DNA of 64,000 nt from Candidatus Scalinduaceae bacterium (GTDB taxonomy: Bacteria; Planctomycetota; Brocadiia; Brocadiales; Scalinduaceae): the NCBI GenBank assembly GCA_046759445.1, contig JBHICG010000005.1, positions 40,352 to 104,351 on the forward strand. The letters are read 5' to 3'. Below are positions 21,891-48,213 of the stretch, piece by piece (the first letter of the stretch is position 1; each line of letters starts with the position of its first letter). The notes beneath the pieces are model-generated. The model ran no database searches. It saw only the letters and a list, made by a program, of their open reading frames with translations, and was not told the DNA's origin. Position numbers and translations under genes: made by a program.

Positions 21891-22084
21891 TAAAATGCCA
21901 AGATTGGTTTTTTCAAAAGTTACATTATATTAAAAAAATACACTACTAAATCAGACCTTTCTCATTGCTCAGAGTGACATTATTACTATTATGTTGTCAA
22001 TCCTTCATTTCATTCAGGACATGTTTTCACAATTTATAGTGACATAAATGTTATGTAGGTTTAATATAATTGTATTTCCTAATT

Positions 22085-22233
22085 AGTATCTGTTGCGGAA
22101 AGCCCAAATATCCAAAGGTGTCATTCTGCCCCCATTCCTAGCTTACGCAAGGAAGCTATGGGGGTCAGAATCTATATGTATCAATCCTGAAACAAGTTCA
22201 GGATGACGAAACCGCGTTTCTGCAACAGATACT
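22085..22233. mobile_element. MITE with AGTATCTGTTGC termini and 4-bp AATT target duplication, carrying REP-like hairpins
   Basis: aatt|agtatctgttgcggaaa ... tttctgcaacagatact|aatt; internal gtcattctg..cagaatc and tcctgaaacaagttcagga hairpins. Confidence 0.7.
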
Positions 22234-22548
22234 AATTAACTAAAACCTTAAATATAACATGATTTTTTAATTTACTCAATAAATAACTAAAACACTGAGT
22301 CAGCAATTTTATTAATCATAAAAAATGTCATTACACCCCTAATATTTCTATGTTGCAAAACATACATACTCTTTTATAATGACTGTAAGTAAAACGTTAC
22401 TACAAACCACTTTTACCACATATAACAGGCTGTCAAAGAATTGATCATTACCGGGCATCGATCAGAAATCCGGTTATCCTGCTGTTAATCAAATGTTTTA
22501 AAACATCTCGTACATGAAGGGATTCTGTAATATTCTGCGCCGGATCAA

Positions 22549-27242: not shown

Positions 27243-28760
27243 ATGCGAGAGATCATAGGAAAATTAGATAATAAAAAAGTAGTCATCATTGGTGGTGGAC
27301 CAGCAGGACTAACCACTGCCTATGAAATCTCCAAGATGGGTGGAGAGTCTATTATTCTTGAAAAAGACCAAATGGTCGGTGGGATCTCAAGGACTGTCAA
27401 TTACAAAAACTACTACTTTGATATAGGAGGCCATCGTTTTTTCACTAAGGTTAAAATAGTTGATGATATATGGAAGGAAGTGCTTGGAGATGATTTCCTA
27501 AAACGCAAACGACTTTCAAGGATCTATTTCAATAATAAGTTCTTTTACTACCCTCTTCGCCCTATTAATGCTCTATTAGGATTGGGGCTATGGAAAAGCG
27601 TTTTGATACTTGCCAGTTACCTTCATTCCCAAATACTCCCTTCAAAAAAAGAAGAAAGCTTAGAACAATGGGTCTCCAACCGCTTTGGGAAATTTTTATA
27701 TAGAACATTCTTCAAAACCTATACGGAAAAGGTATGGGGAATACCATGTTCTGAAATAAGGGCTGAATGGGCTGCACAACGAATTAAAGGCCTCTCCCTC
27801 TTAAGTACCCTAAAAAACGCACTAATAAAACCAAAGAACAGTGGAAATGGAAGCGTTATTAAAACACTTATTAATAGTTTTAACTATCCTAAATTAGGAC
27901 CTGGCATGATGTGGCAATCTATGGCAGAGATCATACGAGGAAAAGGATCTCGAATTTACCTGGGAGTAAAGGTTGAAAGAATTCTATGGAACAATAACAG
28001 GATCGAATATTTAGAAGTAAAGCAAAATGGAGAGAAGAAATTTATACATGGAACCCACTTTATCAATAGTATGCCTATAAGAGAACTCATACAAAAGTTT
28101 AAACCATCTGTACCAGAAAAAGTGCTAGAAGCCGCTAGCAGACTCACTTACAGAGACTTTATTACAGTAGCACTCATAGTTAATAAACGTGACGTATTCT
28201 CTGACAACTGGATATACATTCACGACCCCAATGTCAAACTAAGTAGAATTCAAAACTTTAAGAATTGGAGCCCTTATATGGTACCAGACCCAGATAAAAC
28301 GTGTCTGGGGCTGGAGTATTTTTGCTTCGAGGGAGATGAGTTGTGGACGATGTCGGATCAAGAATTGATTGAATTAGGAAAGAAAGAACTGGAGGTGTTA
28401 GGTTTAGTACGAATGTGTGATATTGAGGATGGTACGGTCGTACGGATGCCCAAGGCATACCCTGTTTATGATCAGACTTATCATAAAAATCTAATGACAG
28501 TACGCCGGTACCTGGAAAAATTCTCAAACCTTCAGACAATAGGTCGCAATGGACTTCACCGTTACAACAACCAGGACCATTCTATGATGACGGGAGTGTT
28601 TGCGGCTCGAAATGTAATAGGTGCAAATTGTGACGTCTGGTCGGTGAACACTGAGATGGAATATCATGAGGAAAGTTTCGTAGCAAAATCGAGGGATCGG
28701 GATAATTTAGTACCTACAAGCGATGCAACCCTGAAGGTTACTAATATATTATCTGACTAA
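27243..28760 (+). CDS. FAD-dependent oxidoreductase (UDP-galactopyranose mutase/protoporphyrinogen oxidase-like), glycan locus
   Basis: GGGPAG, DIGGHRFF, YTEKVWG and GRNGLHRYNNQDHSM motifs. Confidence 0.85.
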   Translation: MREIIGKLDNKKVVIIGGGPAGLTTAYEISKMGGESIILEKDQMVGGISRTVNYKNYYFDIGGHRFFTKVKIVDDIWKEVLGDDFLKRKRLSRIYFNNKFFYYPLRPINALLGLGLWKSVLILASYLHSQILPSKKEESLEQWVSNRFGKFLYRTFFKTYTEKVWGIPCSEIRAEWAAQRIKGLSLLSTLKNALIKPKNSGNGSVIKTLINSFNYPKLGPGMMWQSMAEIIRGKGSRIYLGVKVERILWNNNRIEYLEVKQNGEKKFIHGTHFINSMPIRELIQKFKPSVPEKVLEAASRLTYRDFITVALIVNKRDVFSDNWIYIHDPNVKLSRIQNFKNWSPYMVPDPDKTCLGLEYFCFEGDELWTMSDQELIELGKKELEVLGLVRMCDIEDGTVVRMPKAYPVYDQTYHKNLMTVRRYLEKFSNLQTIGRNGLHRYNNQDHSMMTGVFAARNVIGANCDVWSVNTEMEYHEESFVAKSRDRDNLVPTSDATLKVTNILSD

Positions 28761-42837: not shown

Positions 42838-44937
42838 TTAGAGCTGACTCAAAAGCTGAATTGCTTCCAGTACAAGAGGATAGATGAGAGCTTGTGTGGG
42901 ACAATCCTTAATCCAATCGTTCTTATCAGGGCTTCCTGTTAAGGCGCAACCATCCATCTTTTTCAGTATGTCATTTTCAAGCTTATTCAATGCATCCTGA
43001 TATTCACCATTGTCCAGCTTGTCAATCACCGTATTAAGCTTACTCGTTAATGCCTTTTGGTTGTTTGGATTTTTAAATACTCCTGAGTTTGGATCCAACA
43101 AGTTGATTTCATCAATAGATTCCTGAACCTTTGTTATCGTGGCTGTTGACTGTGTGACAGCAGTGATAGTTACCATGCTTGGATCACTGTTTACAGAGCC
43201 ATCATTCACTATCAGGCTTATGATATATGTACCAGCAGCATCAGCCGTAAATGAAGGATTAGGCGTATCAGGGTTAGCCAGAGTTGCCGAACTGGTAGCG
43301 GGTATAGACGTAAATGACCAACTGTACGTCAATGGATTATTATCAGGGTCGGAGCTTCCGCTTCCATCCAGGACTACTATGTCACCTACAAAGACTGAAT
43401 CGTCATTACCAGCATCCGCCACGGGGGCTACATTGATTGTGCTTATGCTTACTGTATCAGGAGCGCTATCTACTGAGCTATCATTAACCACCAGGCTAAC
43501 TACGTAAGTACCTGCAACATCAACCGTAAATGTGGGGTTTACTGAAGTAGGATTAAGCAGATTTGCAGTACTACCAGCAGGTCTTTGCGTAAATGCCCAA
43601 CTATATGTCAAACCATCTCCATCAACATCCCAGCTATTACCTCCATTCAGGACTACTGTATCTCCCACAAATACAGACTGATCACCTCCAGCATCTGCTA
43701 TGGGGGCAGAATTAAGTGTGCTTATCTTTACCTCATCAGGTGTACTGTCTACGGTGCTGTCATTGACTGTCAAACTTACTACATAGTCCCCCGATTTATC
43801 GACCGTAAATGTAGGATGCGCTGGATCGGATGGATTCACAACCAACGTTGCAGTGCTGTCAACGGGCTTTGATGTAAATGACCAATTAAATGTTAAAGAA
43901 TCACCATCTACGTCAGAGCTTCCACTTCCATCCAGCGTTACCAGATCATTAACGAATACCGATTGATCAGGACCTGCATTTGCGACAGGGGCTGAATTGA
44001 GCGTGCTTATGGTTACAGTATCAGGATCACTATCTATAATACCATCGTTAACCGTCAAACTTACTACATAGTCCCCCGCTTTATCAACCGTAAATGCAGG
44101 ATGCGCCGGATCAAGTGGATCTATGACCAAACTTGCCGTACTACCGGCAGGTTGTGATGTAAAAGACCAATTAAATGACAGTTGATCACCATTGGCATCC
44201 CAGCTTCCACTTCCATCCAGCGTTACCGGGTCACCCACAAATACTGACTGGTCTGGCCCGGCATCTGCCACTGGGGTAGCATTACCACCGGAACAGTTGA
44301 CAAACAGCCAATTCGTATTATTGCCACTATCTATGGAATTACATGCATAGATTACGTCTCCATCAATCTCCTGTGAATGGCTAACGTTCAGATAATCAAC
44401 AATAGTCGTTGGCGTGTTCAGATACCAGTTAGTCAAGGGTGTCAAAGGAGCAAGCGTTATATAATTGCCTGATGAACCGTTCACGTTAAATGTAGAAGAT
44501 ATTGTATGGAAACCACCAGTTTCAAAGGACAATTTCTTGACACCTGTTGTAGCGTTTAGGGTGTCACAGTAAAGTTCATCAGTAAATGCAACACCTGATG
44601 AATGTGAATTCAGAACGTCAAGTACGTAAAATGCCGAGCTTGATCCACCTGTTAATACAGACTGTTGATTAGTGGTAGAGTTGAGAATTACCGTACCTGT
44701 GCCGGAAATAAAACTGCCTAAATTATTTGTCCAGTCACCATCCAGGCTAATCTCTCCTGTATTTAATTGAAGCGTTCCAGCATTATCAACGTCTCCTCTC
44801 ACATCCATAGCGCTGGTGTTTACGTTGAAAGTATGGCCAAATGGTATCGTAACCCCCGCAGCGTGAACTGAGCTGGTGCTTATTATGCCGATTAAGGCCG
44901 TTAATAATAATATGAATCTAAATCTAAACCTGAACAT
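42838..44937 (-). CDS. Secreted protein with 4 PKD/Ig-like repeats and a C-terminal helical (FIMAH-like) domain
   Basis: Signal peptide ending VHA; four ~95-aa repeats 'PxAxAGxDxSVF...LDGSGS.D...W...FT.D.AG.Y..SL.VND'. Confidence 0.85.
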   Translation of the reverse strand: MFRFRFRFILLLTALIGIISTSSVHAAGVTIPFGHTFNVNTSAMDVRGDVDNAGTLQLNTGEISLDGDWTNNLGSFISGTGTVILNSTTNQQSVLTGGSSSAFYVLDVLNSHSSGVAFTDELYCDTLNATTGVKKLSFETGGFHTISSTFNVNGSSGNYITLAPLTPLTNWYLNTPTTIVDYLNVSHSQEIDGDVIYACNSIDSGNNTNWLFVNCSGGNATPVADAGPDQSVFVGDPVTLDGSGSWDANGDQLSFNWSFTSQPAGSTASLVIDPLDPAHPAFTVDKAGDYVVSLTVNDGIIDSDPDTVTISTLNSAPVANAGPDQSVFVNDLVTLDGSGSSDVDGDSLTFNWSFTSKPVDSTATLVVNPSDPAHPTFTVDKSGDYVVSLTVNDSTVDSTPDEVKISTLNSAPIADAGGDQSVFVGDTVVLNGGNSWDVDGDGLTYSWAFTQRPAGSTANLLNPTSVNPTFTVDVAGTYVVSLVVNDSSVDSAPDTVSISTINVAPVADAGNDDSVFVGDIVVLDGSGSSDPDNNPLTYSWSFTSIPATSSATLANPDTPNPSFTADAAGTYIISLIVNDGSVNSDPSMVTITAVTQSTATITKVQESIDEINLLDPNSGVFKNPNNQKALTSKLNTVIDKLDNGEYQDALNKLENDILKKMDGCALTGSPDKNDWIKDCPTQALIYPLVLEAIQLLSQL

Positions 44938-45001: not shown

Positions 45002-46126
45002 TTAAATCTTATCCTCAAGGTCCCTTACCTTTGCAGAAAGTTCGGATATAATCTTTTGCTGCTCCTGAACAACCTTGGTCAATACTGCTGCTATATCCAT
45101 AGGAGATAAACCTTTACGATCTTGAGTGGCTACAAGTTCCGGTACGTCTTCAGCAATAAATCCAAGGTGTTCTTCTCCAGACCCTTCAGTTTTATATTCA
45201 AACCTTACCGGATTGAGATCATTTAATGCGTCCATTGCCTCCTTTGTTGATATATATGATATATTCTTTTTAAATTCTCTGGATGAGCCTTGGCTTAATG
45301 TCCCTGTTATAGTTAGATTACCTGAAGAACGATCTAATCTCATTGCAGTAGTAAAATTAATATCGGCGTCAGCGGTACCGTTGGGTGCAGTTAAAAAGAG
45401 AAAGTCTCCATTAGTAACTTGCAACACGGCAGCCTCAGCATTTGATGCAATGTATTTAAAGAGCCCATTAGAACCTGTGTAAGTGTTCAGATTTAAACTA
45501 ACAGTACCGCCATCTCCCCAATCAACAAATGCTCCCAGTGGACCTAATTGTACAGCTTTATAGTTAGGATGCCAGGTCTTAAGACTACTGTTGCCTATGC
45601 CGACGTTGCCGCTTGTATCAATAACCATATCTACACTAGAAGAAGAACCATTTGTAAAAAATTTAATACCATTACCAGCTTCTGCCCCCAAAGTCAAATC
45701 TATATCCGAACCTTTGCCACTCATTGAAGCAAATGTGCCTATTCCCCATCTCCATGCCCCATTTATGGATCCAATTACAGATGGTCCTTTTGCATCAGCT
45801 GTATCAACCTGTATAGTTCCGAAAGTAGTTGCACTCTTTACATGTAAAGGTTTTGTTGGAACCGGCGTGCCAATGCCGACATTGCCTTCTACAATCAAGC
45901 CATAGACCGGAGAGCCAGGAGAGCTATGGCCAGCAAAAACCGGCCCAATACCGACGTTGCTATCTCCCCTTGCTCTCATAACTGTATCACCACTTGAATT
46001 CTTAACAGTAAACCCACTGTTTATGTCACTACTATCAAGTGTTACTTCAGTATCAGCAGCATAAGTAACTGAACCTACTCCTAAAAAGAATACACATAAA
46101 CCGACTAAGATATTTCTCCTTATCAT
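45002..46126 (-). CDS. Secreted phage-tail-fibre-like protein with C-terminal peptidase S74 chaperone
   Basis: Signal peptide; GNVGIG repeats; SSREFKKNI...L.PVRF.YK...GFIAEDVPE...coiled coil. Confidence 0.85.
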   Translation of the reverse strand: MIRRNILVGLCVFFLGVGSVTYAADTEVTLDSSDINSGFTVKNSSGDTVMRARGDSNVGIGPVFAGHSSPGSPVYGLIVEGNVGIGTPVPTKPLHVKSATTFGTIQVDTADAKGPSVIGSINGAWRWGIGTFASMSGKGSDIDLTLGAEAGNGIKFFTNGSSSSVDMVIDTSGNVGIGNSSLKTWHPNYKAVQLGPLGAFVDWGDGGTVSLNLNTYTGSNGLFKYIASNAEAAVLQVTNGDFLFLTAPNGTADADINFTTAMRLDRSSGNLTITGTLSQGSSREFKKNISYISTKEAMDALNDLNPVRFEYKTEGSGEEHLGFIAEDVPELVATQDRKGLSPMDIAAVLTKVVQEQQKIISELSAKVRDLEDKI

Positions 46127-46159: not shown

Positions 46160-47227
46160 TTAAATTCTATCCTCTATTACCTTTAATTTCGCAGATAAAG
46201 TAGATATTGTTTCTTGCTGTTCTTTAATTGCCTCGATTAACAATGGCACTAGTTTGGAATATTCAACACCCTTATATCCATCCTTATTGGTATGAACCAC
46301 TTCCGGAACCAATTTCTCAACATCCTGTGCGATAATTCCTATATTATGGTCTTTAGAAAAATTCCTCTCCTTATATTCATCACTACGCCATCTGAAACTT
46401 ACCCCCTGTAAGTTACTCACCTTTTCAAGAGCACCTTTGAGTGGTTTTATATCTTTTTTAAAGCGAACATCACTCGTTAGCACTGTACCGTTAGAACAAA
46501 CCGAACCTGTTACATCCAATTTGCAACCGGGGTTTGTTTTACCGATGCCGACGTTGCCATTTCCTAAAATGATCATTCTGTCGCTTGAGCTTCCAGCGCC
46601 AAATCTCATTGCTCCACCATTTGCCCAGTCGAAACTATAGAATATTTCACCGCCAACGTTACTATCTGGAGAACCAAAGGCAAGCCTGGCATCGTTGTTA
46701 GCACCCGAAGTTAAAATTGATATTCCTGCATGAGCACTACCTTCCACGACAAGGTCATCTGCATTAGAATATGGAGAAATACCCGCATTCCCTTGTTTAA
46801 TGTGTAGTTTACCAGACGGACTCGTTGTACCAACGCCGACATTGCCGTTCTCTGCTATACCAAATCTCCAGACTGGAGCACCATCATCTATAAAAAAAAG
46901 TCCTTCGCTAAGAGCCTGCATTCGCCAGGTTTTTGTTCCTATTCCTGACGTCATCCGTATCATTGGTTGATCGGTTCCAGTAATACTCAAAGCATCGTTA
47001 CTTGCTCCAGTTTCAATATGCAATTTCGCCCCAGGGCTCGTCATACCTATCCCGACGTTGCCATCGCCCCCGGCACGTATTATTGTTTCACCATTAGCTT
47101 TTTTCACTGAAAAGCCACTATTTGCATCATTACTATCAAGTGTTACTTCCGTATCAGCTGCATAAGTAACAGAACCTACTCCTAAAAAGAATACACATAA
47201 ACCTACCAAAATATTTCTCTTAAACAT
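46160..47227 (-). CDS. Secreted phage-tail-fibre-like protein with C-terminal peptidase S74 chaperone
   Basis: Signal peptide; three GNVG(I/V)G repeats; SDVRFKKDI...GIIAQDVE...V.Y..LVPLLIEAIKEQQ. Confidence 0.88.
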   Translation of the reverse strand: MFKRNILVGLCVFFLGVGSVTYAADTEVTLDSNDANSGFSVKKANGETIIRAGGDGNVGIGMTSPGAKLHIETGASNDALSITGTDQPMIRMTSGIGTKTWRMQALSEGLFFIDDGAPVWRFGIAENGNVGVGTTSPSGKLHIKQGNAGISPYSNADDLVVEGSAHAGISILTSGANNDARLAFGSPDSNVGGEIFYSFDWANGGAMRFGAGSSSDRMIILGNGNVGIGKTNPGCKLDVTGSVCSNGTVLTSDVRFKKDIKPLKGALEKVSNLQGVSFRWRSDEYKERNFSKDHNIGIIAQDVEKLVPEVVHTNKDGYKGVEYSKLVPLLIEAIKEQQETISTLSAKLKVIEDRI

Positions 47228-47430
47228 TCTTTGCCTCCTTAAAATAATAAATATTTCAATATAAAATGCAAAATTACGGCAATTACTTTAATGCAAAATT
47301 GCTAAGCAATTCAGTAATAACTGAATTGCCTTAATCCCAAATCCAACTTTCATAGCTCATTGATTATGTAGCGGCCAATATATAACTCCTCACAATCCTT
47401 TCCCTACCTGTAAAAGACAGATACATTCAT

Positions 47431-47508
47431 AAAACAAAAAAAGCCTTACTGCAAAGATATTAATGAAATCGATGTGAATTCACATAAGCCATCCCTGGCA
47501 GTAAGGCT
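47431..47508 (-). terminator. Intrinsic terminator / riboswitch expression platform
   Basis: Perfect 11-bp stem AGCCTTACTGC/GCAGTAAGGCT (47498-47508 with 47442-47452), then a U-tract; the 5' arm overlaps the aptamer 3' end. Confidence 0.75.
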
Positions 47509-47727
47509 GTCTTTTAAAACTATTTCCTTAAAAGTCTTACGAACCTTTACTTAGTTTCTGTTGCGGTGAGCCATCAAACATATGTATGACCTATCGCAGC
47601 AAAAACTACTTGTAGCCCTGTACGATTAAAGACCCTTTAGCTTTGCGCTCCAACTGAAGCTGACCCATTGTGCTGCTTAAGAGAACAATGACAGCCTCGC
47701 TCAAGGATTTGCCTTTATTCGGATACG
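47490..47727 (-). ncRNA. c-di-GMP-I (GEMM) riboswitch-like aptamer with expanded P2 and P3
   Basis: Minus strand reads AATAAAGGCAAATCC...GGAGCGCAAAGCTAAAGGGTCTT...AAGACAGCCTTACTGCC; it lies in the 5' leader of the fibre operon. Confidence 0.7.
47553..47607. mobile_element. 55-bp MITE (AGTTTCTGTTGC terminus, ACTT 4-bp duplication) inside the riboswitch P3 loop
   Basis: actt|agtttctgttgcggt...atcgcagcaaaaact|actt. Confidence 0.6.
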
Positions 47728-48038
47728 GTCTATTATCAAATAACGTTCCCTGTCTATGTCTGCCGAGAAGCAGGAACAGGCATAAACGTTATGATTCCCT
47801 ATAAGCTCGTACAAAAGCAAGATTAAAAGTCAGGAAATTCGATTGATTTATTTGAAGTGTTTCGTGAACCTTGAAACGCAATGTAATTATGTATGATCTG
47901 CTGTTTCTAAAGAACGCAGATATAGGTGAGAATAAATGCGTTACCATAATGGTAAAAGTGGCTTTTCCCATTACTAATACTCCTATTAGTACAAATGTGG
48001 GTAATCACGTCAATATACAAGGTATTATAAGACGCAAT

Positions 48039-48066
48039 ATGATAAAATAATATTACTAATTGTCAA
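48039..48066 (-). promoter_or_regulatory. Candidate sigma70 promoter for the riboswitch/fibre operon
   Basis: TTGACA-N16-TATCAT on the minus strand. Confidence 0.35.
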
Positions 48067-48213
48067 GCATAAACAGGCAATGACAGGAAATATTTTTCTA
48101 TGTCATGGAGTGTCTAAGACTGTCTAAGACAGATTATACGACTAAAGACTAGAGAGAATGTTCACTGTTGTAATGTACACTTTGAATCTATTGTAAAGTT
48201 TTTCTTTTTTGAG

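Follow-up and report, generated by a model that had tools for sequence, protein, structure and literature searches.

A heavily remodelled c-di-GMP-I riboswitch copy upstream of a secreted-protein operon in a Scalinduaceae bacterium

Riboswitches of the c-di-GMP-I class (GEMM-I; Rfam family RF01051), whose residues are numbered here after Vc2 of Vibrio cholerae, bind cyclic di-GMP (c-di-GMP) and belong to the GEMM motif. In the excerpts of the original description used here (Weinberg 2007, PMC1950547), the loop of the first hairpin (P2) is "almost always" GNRA among 322 GEMMs, a receptor is present in about half of them, and GYRA loops almost never occur with one. The same excerpts give a rule for the linker between the hairpins, describe a second hairpin (P3) that is variable in length and whose 3′ part often competes with a terminator, and list the planctomycete phylum as GEMM-rich. 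The roles of G20 or A20, C44-G83 and A25-G42 are described in the portions of PMC6140456 and PMC11705072 consulted, and in the riboswitches for 3′,3′-cyclic GMP-AMP (3′,3′-cGAMP; GEMM-Ib) the position of G20 is taken by an A (PMC6140456). The present analysis concerns a locus on the minus strand of a 64,000-nucleotide (nt) stretch of contig JBHICG010000005.1 from a Candidatus Scalinduaceae bacterium, called the window below. Judged from its letters, 47723-47436 is the sensor and expression platform of a c-di-GMP-I riboswitch, in a heavily remodelled copy whose aptamer may well be weakened or dead.

Recognition and ancestry of the element

At the Rfam gathering thresholds there are no matches in the whole window, the cut-off for RF01051 being 35 bits. 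With permissive settings, RF01051 gives no match at E<=10 on 47200-48000, and the sole related match there is c-di-GMP-I-GGC (RF03167; 12.2 bits, E 7.8), the only Rfam family that aligns to the locus at all. In this family, "GGC" refers to altered pocket residues. Its alignment, over 47591-47722, is mis-registered, with the wrong 3′ partner for P3, and its cut-off of 59 bits is far above the score; an element on contig C71 of the same genome passes at 62.2 bits. Thus, the suspicion in the initial annotation that standard covariance searches could miss this element was borne out, as the gathering-threshold and the permissive searches both fail. Elsewhere in the same genome, RF01051 has four matches (69.4, 68.9, 60 and 33.9 bits), those on contigs C47 and C71 being the two ends of one element divided between contigs.

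Related loci can instead be reached through the 3′ half. The segment 47539-47427, comprising the 3′ strand of P3 and the terminator, is 83-85% identical by BLAST to loci in its own genome and in relatives. The best match of the 3′ half and terminator is an element from the same genus (85%, E 1.1e-32), which RF01051 scores at 53.7 bits. Four relatives found in this way are themselves RF01051 matches (39.3-56.5 bits); they have a canonical P2 and insertions of 43-66 nt in the P3 loop, and their core is nearly letter-identical to that of the window.

A covariance model for the lineage, R1, was built from 10 Rfam-positive relatives with the window left out, and an Rfam-type structure was written onto the alignment. 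Searches were run with filters off, and E-values are rough because calibration was short. In the window, R1 matches 47491-47723 on the minus strand over its full length (1-108/108) with 36.4 bits and E 4.5e-7, or E 2.5e-5 genome-wide; in this alignment a 54-nt local end replaces P2 and P3 holds a long insert. The second-best of 24 matches at E<=10 in the window reaches 17.1 bits; this match (27640-27758, plus strand, E 0.04) lies inside a 505-amino-acid open reading frame (ORF) and was taken as chance. For comparison, the 18 R1 matches of the GYRA-type subfamily discussed below score 54-110 bits, and four others (the GAAA-type C26 and C67, and loci L186 and L189) score 30.7-40.2 bits. In its own genome, R1 adds four matches at E<=1e-3 beyond the RF01051 loci, namely the window copy and those on C55, C21 and C23. 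Across 25 matches, 90.9% of the cells of the family structure are paired, 15 of 24 pairs show compensatory changes and none of 500 shuffles does as well, counts that favour the model, as the alignment was fitted to R1.

Given the 85% likeness to an RF01051-positive relative and the full-length R1 match, the element descends from c-di-GMP-I riboswitches. Whatever its present function, the case indicates that lineage-specific models recover elements below the Rfam cut-offs. The parts of the element, all on the minus strand, are as follows.

47491-47723, minus strand: aptamer domain, a c-di-GMP-I derivative, from the full-length R1 match
47708-47716, minus strand: 5′ core AAAGGCAAA, from the alignments; the equivalent of G20 is 47713
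47648-47707, minus strand: expanded P2 domain, an irregular hairpin with an apical region of the 13-nt class and no GNRA, from the fold and R1
47641-47647, minus strand: CGCAAAG junction, from the alignment; the equivalents of A47 and C44 are 47644 and 47647
47628-47640, minus strand: 5′ strand of P3, in which C47640 bulges out and TA pairs at the base, ahead of AGG and GTCTTT, from R1
47551-47611, minus strand: palindromic insertion in distal P3 of the miniature inverted-repeat transposable element (MITE) type, from paralog alignment, repeat and fold
47498-47513, minus strand: 3′ strand of P3, AAGAC-AG-CCTTACT then GC, from R1; the equivalent of C92 is 47498
47436-47508, minus strand: intrinsic terminator, with stem AGCCTTACTGC.AGGGATG and its complement, an inner hairpin in the loop, and seven T

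The core motifs of c-di-GMP-I follow one another in the correct order over 47723-47491, as had been claimed at the outset, and every motif named then is present in its place, with AAAGGCAAATCC at 47716-47705 and GGAGCGCAAAGC at 47651-47640. Read along the minus strand, the order is AAAGGCAAA, 60 nt, CGCAAAG, AAGGGTCTTT, 115 nt, AAAAGACAGCCTTACTGCC (ending at 47497), a long hairpin and seven T. A search for the composite pattern AAAGGCAAA-N45-75-CGCAAAG-N3-8-GGGTCTT gives a single match in the window and none in any of 100 shuffles. According to the alignments, GGCAAA and CGCAAAG provide the 2-base-pair (bp) clamp (G47712 and C47711 with G47646 and C47645), the AAA internal loop and the AAA linker between the hairpins. 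The equivalent of C44 and the AG bulge are intact too. Aligned to R1 and to Rfam-positive relatives, with a map of the Vc2 numbering derived in this analysis, the equivalents of G20, A47 and C92 are G47713, A47644 and C47498. In particular, 47713 falls on the first G of GGC and is a G, as the initial annotation had read it. The window thus shares a fold family with GEMM-Ib and differs from it at this position, so that nothing points to cGAMP.

In P3, the proposed pairings GTCTT (47633-47629) with AAGAC (47513-47509) and AAGG (47637-47634) with CCTT (47506-47503) are both present. Indeed, the conserved features of this hairpin, namely AGG/CCT, GTCTTT/AAAGAC, the AG bulge and the GCC tail, are all found, the base having either one bulged C or two mismatches. 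The 3′ strand is the most conserved stretch of the subfamily, with invariant columns.

Smaller deviations accompany this conservation. Of 32 columns with a conservation of 90% or more across 23 relatives, the window keeps 27; its five deviations are the most among the 24 sequences, the others having 0-4. The replaced P2 accounts for three of them, a position of P1 for the fourth and a G of the internal loop for the fifth. Moreover, R1 places two non-standard pairs in P1, which also has an extra A at 47718, and treats C47640 as an insert, or bulge, in the base of P3. The weakened P1 with its extra A, the G-to-A change in the internal loop and the bulged C had escaped the initial annotation.

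Compared with RF01051 and Vc2, therefore, the window has the AAAGGCAAA core, the GC clamp, CGCAAAG, the AG bulge of P3 and the GCC tail, with G, A and C at the equivalents of G20, A47 and C92, and its place is a 5′ leader in front of genes whose products are extracellular. It differs in scoring below the cut-off, in a 60-nt P2 devoid of GNRA in place of a 6-bp stem with a tetraloop, in a 115-nt P3 loop with a MITE-type hairpin, in having no 11-nt receptor, and in its weakened P1, changed internal loop and bulged C in P3.

The lineage subfamily and the remodelled hairpins

The element belongs to a lineage-specific subfamily, whose cited members include L026, L027, L183 and L065. In this subfamily P2 is capped by GYRA, the 11-nt receptor is lacking, P3 is long and variable, and the terminator is conserved. 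Among 15 relatives aligned, 13 cap a 6-bp P2 with GYRA (9 GUAA, 2 GCGA, 2 GUGA), and a GNRA loop is missing in the other two, one of which passes RF01051 at 39.3 bits. None of the 15 has the 11-nt receptor. These loops and receptors agree with the original description of GEMM, so that GYRA without a receptor is what would be expected. For the same reason, the statement of the initial annotation that the P2 tetraloop docks on P3 holds for the half of the family with GAAA and a receptor and not for this GYRA lineage, which is mostly receptor-less, in keeping with the excerpts of PMC1950547.

Long second hairpins are ordinary in these genomes. RF01051 has matches in 29 of the 41 genomes searched, with a maximum of 44 in one genome, and many of them span 100-139 nt. 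R1 matches range from 90 to 189 nt, so the length of P3 is very tolerant in the lineage. For instance, L193 (G011:C13, 189 nt) has an intact core and a P3 loop of about 120 nt without a recognised mobile element, which indicates that very long P3 loops arise without one. As a separate observation, the repertoires of c-di-GMP-I elements are very large in the same-order genomes G030, G036 and G011 (44, 35 and 32 RF01051 matches), many of these matches having P3 insertions of 20-50 nt.

With the long-P3 members of this subfamily the window shares a nearly identical core and P3 strands, the same two-tier terminator with the same inner hairpin in its loop, and the same classes of genes downstream (secreted and surface proteins, Flp pili). 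What sets it apart is P2, which measures 60 nt from GGCAAA to CGCAAAG and has no GNRA, whereas relatives have an 18-nt domain, capped GUAA, GUGA or GCGA in 13 of 15, and P3, where relatives carry extensions of 30-120 nt without a MITE and the window carries a MITE-type insertion.

The P2 domain folds at a minimum free energy (MFE) of -20.8 kcal/mol (z -1.75). A P2 of about 59 nt with two stems had been proposed, and both stems, GAGGCTG/CAGCTTC and CATTGT/ACAATG, recur in the MFE fold of the 60 nt measured; likewise, no GAAA or other GNRA tetraloop occurs in the domain, as first reported. The idea of two large insertions requires some amendment. P2 is indeed enlarged, but not by a clean insertion into the tetraloop. 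It is rather a replacement that alters the conserved internal loop, the 3′ side of which reads GAC/GGC in relatives and AGC or GC in the window (G to A). When 92 genomes of the order were searched by pattern for a P2 of 36-66 nt, 10 matches turned up, spread over 9 genomes, and of these matches only the window's own reads as a riboswitch of this kind. The 10 include the window twice, in different registers, and a single conserved sequence of genus g19 three times; the match in G089 is a canonical riboswitch in which CGCAAAG occurs a second time by chance. The remaining ones were judged by reading not to be riboswitch-like.

Two further properties of the new P2 concern its possible partners and source. 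Within it, GAGGCTGTC (47697-47689) is complementary over 9 nt, with one G-U, to GACAGCCTT (47511-47503) in the 3′ strand of P3, which is the most conserved strand of the aptamer and also the 5′ arm of the terminator. This pairing displaces P3 in the MFE fold of the aptamer alone and is missing from that of the full length. In addition, the 3′ half of the P2 insert and the CGCAAAG junction share 78% identity along some 59 nt with an intergenic stretch at C18:17478-17535 (E ~4e-5); this stretch may be a donor or a sister of the insert. Scored against Rfam and R1, it gave no match. A TTGACA-type promoter-like sequence stands before this stretch and a small hairpin after it.

The P3 loop had been put at about 115 nt, and 47628-47514 measure exactly that. 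Its reported MITE content stands in kind for about 61 nt (47611-47551), and the remaining 54 nt or so are a P3 extension normal for the subfamily. Compared with 9 paralogs, the insertion accounts for 48 insertion-only columns, about 61 nt standing in place of about 11 nt that form the 5′ strand of a hairpin, P3c. In several copies P3c varies in sequence while its pairs are kept, an observation made by reading an alignment that MAFFT leaves out of register there. The 13-mer CCGCAACAGAAAC of the insertion occurs 11 times in the genome, and 16 nt at its right end are identical to both terminal repeats of a 157-nt element at C4:57395-57551, which has 108 BLAST matches in the genome (E<=1e-3). The left arm is an imperfect inverted copy only, the interior, single-copy in the genome, shows no homology to the 157-nt element, and a target-site duplication could not be clearly made out at the insertion. 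Alone, the insertion folds at about -21.5 kcal/mol (centroid). In an unrelated marine metagenome run, contigs pile up on 47524-47631, as would be expected of repeat sequence. The 85-nt P3 extension has BLAST matches in 1 of 92 genomes at E<=0.01, and the notion that it is an independent, widely conserved sensor is accordingly unsupported.

The MITE family itself is about 157 nt long, with 19-nt terminal inverted repeats TAATTAGTTTCTGTTGCGG and internal palindromes, and occupies about 100 places in the genome. Hairpin-forming MITEs are transcribed in bacterial leaders, as is the case for Correia, ERIC and BOX-type elements. The P3 insert resembles these in being a short palindrome in a transcribed untranslated region with a predicted stable hairpin, and differs in that its hairpin lies inside a riboswitch aptamer helix. 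The literature searches made on this point turned up no report of a MITE inside such a helix.

The window version recurs with 0 differences in two DNA runs, in a 9253-nt contig (X1) and in a 311-nt contig over 47438-47748 (X2), although both runs may be source samples. X2 also holds an 838-nt contig (depth 10.9) that is identical to 47719-47900, lacks the extra A, and then passes into 18 letters of canonical core. In another contig of the same run (186 nt, depth 2.25), 31 flank letters are followed by 35 letters that replace 47640-47718 and read as a canonical core with a 6-bp P2 and a GUAA loop, and then by 47639-47558, differing at 9 of 82 positions and taking in part of the MITE. BLAST found no second copy of the upstream flank in the own assembly. 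As a contig-level, low-depth lead, these contigs could come from a second version of this locus, present alongside the first and carrying a canonical P2. Divergence rising abruptly from 0 to 11% along them suggests recombination, and the joining of the same flank to a canonical GUAA-capped P2 makes the remodelling of P2 look recent.

Expression platform and predicted function

The terminator hairpin (47508-47442) with its T run is predicted at -28.8 kcal/mol (z -5.77), and none of 200 shuffles is as stable. Those of relatives range from -20.1 to -32.3 kcal/mol, and the two-tier design aligns with 9 paralogs. A simple terminator scanner misses it because of its large loop. The 5′ arm of the terminator coincides in sequence with the 3′ strands of P3 and P1 in the aptamer, an arrangement like that which the excerpts of PMC1950547 give for GEMM, in which the 3′ strand of the second hairpin is contested by a terminator. 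Consequently, a ligand-closed aptamer would block the terminator, and from this anatomy we infer an ON switch. In such a switch, bound c-di-GMP would hold the P3 3′/P1 3′ strand inside the aptamer, the terminator would be blocked, and transcription would pass into the operon of secreted S74 and PKD proteins. In this copy, most of P2 and part of the internal loop have given way to the 60-nt hairpin, distal P3 holds a 61-nt MITE-type hairpin, and P1 and the base of P3 show small defects.

Loss of the sensor is not rare in this family. Five further copies in the genome fail Rfam even at E<=5 and keep P3 and the terminator. They are the following.

C55:21474-21640, own genome: 5′ core lost
C66:7340-7545, own genome: 5′ core lost
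C19:48540-48700, own genome: 5′ core lost
C21:45332-45506, own genome: core heavily mutated
C23:45600-45787, own genome: core heavily mutated

A locus of the same-genus genome G001 (L180) has likewise lost the core and kept P3 and the terminator. Together, these six suggest that in this lineage the sensor commonly decays while the terminator is retained. The genes behind the relic copies are intact; among them are a Flp-pilus operon and a gene for a protein of more than 1100 amino acids.

It seems an even call that the aptamer of the window copy is weakened or dead and that its leader works mainly as a terminator-based attenuator, with little or no response to c-di-GMP. On the side of impairment are the loss of a near-universal GNRA cap, the change in a loop next to the pocket, the weak P1 and the bulged base of P3. 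Several observations weigh against it. Nothing is changed at the ligand-contact positions, in the AAA linker and the clamp, at the C44 equivalent or in the AG bulge, whereas the clear relics on C21 and C23 have many core substitutions. Both additions sit at helix tips and fold by themselves, so they need not disturb the three-helix junction. The lineage tolerates P3 lengths that give matches of 90-189 nt, including a loop of about 120 nt beside an intact core; a P2 without GNRA occurs in 2 of 15 relatives, one of them at or above the RF01051 cut-off (39.3 bits); and loss of the loop may cost less than it would in Vc2, since GYRA GEMMs are usually receptor-less. The downstream ORFs are intact, and the canonical-P2 relative in X2 may carry the same P3 insertion. 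Furthermore, should the remodelling be recent, little about selection could be read from the intact core in either direction. The same features lend themselves to the reading that this is a functional expanded variant, a substantial possibility if one short of even, in which the junction would form and bind c-di-GMP while the long P2 and the MITE hairpin project from the tips. It would still be an ON switch, possibly with lower affinity or slower folding. The contact positions and 27 of 32 conserved columns that are kept, the distal and self-folding nature of the insertions, the variability of P3 among intact relatives, the GYRA-type GEMMs without receptors in the excerpts of PMC1950547, the two relatives lacking GNRA, the retained terminator and intact operon, and the riboswitch control of a homologous operon in a related genome are all consistent with it. 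It has to accommodate, however, the most deviations of the 24 sequences compared, the changed loop beside the pocket, the weakened P1 and the bulged P3 base, as well as a P2 insert that can pair with the P3 3′ strand and the frequency of relics in its own genome; and as the pattern search of 92 genomes gave no second such P2, there is no covariation to support the new domain.

Improbably, the element could also have been re-purposed, the new P2 serving another input (ligand, protein or RNA) or GAGGCTGTC acting as an antiterminator, independently of c-di-GMP. The complementarity of 47697-47689 to 47511-47503 and its use in the aptamer-only fold would fit this, as would the likeness of the 3′ half of the insert and the junction to the unrelated intergenic stretch on C18. 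Yet in the full-length fold the P2 insert folds on itself and the terminator is formed, the complementarity is marginal against chance (a few percent, by a rough estimate), the C18 stretch matches neither an Rfam family nor R1, and the pattern search revealed no relatives with this P2 domain. As for a chance resemblance or an assembly artefact, with no riboswitch ancestry, the lack of a significant Rfam match is what such an origin would predict. The likelihood of this is negligible in view of the R1 match (E 4.5e-7), the BLAST match to an Rfam-positive relative (E 1e-32), the pattern that no shuffle out of 100 reproduced, and the contigs of X1 and X2, possibly the source samples, that cover the stretch with 0 differences.

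A more specific proposition is that a working c-di-GMP-I aptamer with a 60-nt P2 domain and a transposon-derived P3 hairpin coexists with a canonical-P2 allele at the same locus. It is offered tentatively and is rather doubtful, but if it holds, the pair would be a natural experiment on the part of the GEMM-I scaffold that is dispensable. A responsive element would imply that the GEMM-I fold tolerates a replaced hairpin cap and a mobile-element insertion, which bears on riboswitch engineering, and that curated covariance models systematically miss functional riboswitches bearing insertions. If the weakened or dead aptamer preferred above is indeed dead, the locus would be a dated snapshot of riboswitch decay and, with five other copies that keep their terminators, would raise the question of the fate of genes behind orphaned terminators.

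Downstream operon, leader and further repeats

The ribosome-binding site and ATG of the first gene lie about 200 nt downstream of the terminator region, so that the element has the 5′ cis-regulatory position of a leader with an expression platform. The genes and the remaining features of the surroundings are listed here.

46160-47240, minus strand: ribosome-binding site AAGGAGG (47240-47234) and first gene, 355 amino acids, with a signal-like N-terminus and Peptidase_S74 (intramolecular chaperone)
45002-46126, minus strand: gene for a second S74-domain protein, with a signal-like N-terminus
42838-44937, minus strand: gene for a PKD-repeat protein of 699 amino acids
47724-48030, minus strand: 5′ leader module, repeated before other leaders of the riboswitch family
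48039-48066, minus strand: putative promoter, TTGACA, a 16-nt spacer and TATCAT, matching the consensus at 11 of 12 positions and ranking first among 7 sites
22080-22238 of the window (C5:62431-62589): further copy of the MITE family

A homologous arrangement exists in G011, a genome of the same family. There, a 147-nt riboswitch (L065:1907-2053, minus strand) with a GUGA-capped canonical P2, a long P3 and an R1 score of 64.4 bits stands some 180 nt before two tandem S74 genes homologous to the operon of the window, which suggests that this gene family is a regular target of the switch. The S74 gene has matches in 8 of 31 genomes overall and in neither of the two same-genus genomes. No close relative of it was found, the best genome contig reaching 66% (C-terminal domain only) and the best metagenome contig 52% (partial). 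Similarly, no true orthologous leader was found to align, and paralogs and one analogous operon were used instead.

The promoter-like site would start the leader about 310 nt upstream of the aptamer. Between the two, the leader module contains a questionable 60-codon ORF (47971-47789) and, at about 47770-47727, a long hairpin with imperfect pairing. Together with the promoter-like site (47724-48070), the module has seven other BLAST loci with 69-81% identity (C21, C64, C5:37734, C19, C47, C66 and C28); it precedes the C19 and C21 paralogs, in whose copies the ORF is kept only at the DNA level. The single RNA run, X3, covers only the family-conserved part of the terminator and the upstream repeat, with 85-99% likeness, and has nothing on 47536-47703, so that it speaks neither for transcription nor against it. 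Within the leader module, 47824-47871 is where the contig depth of the whole stretch peaks in each of the four metagenome runs.

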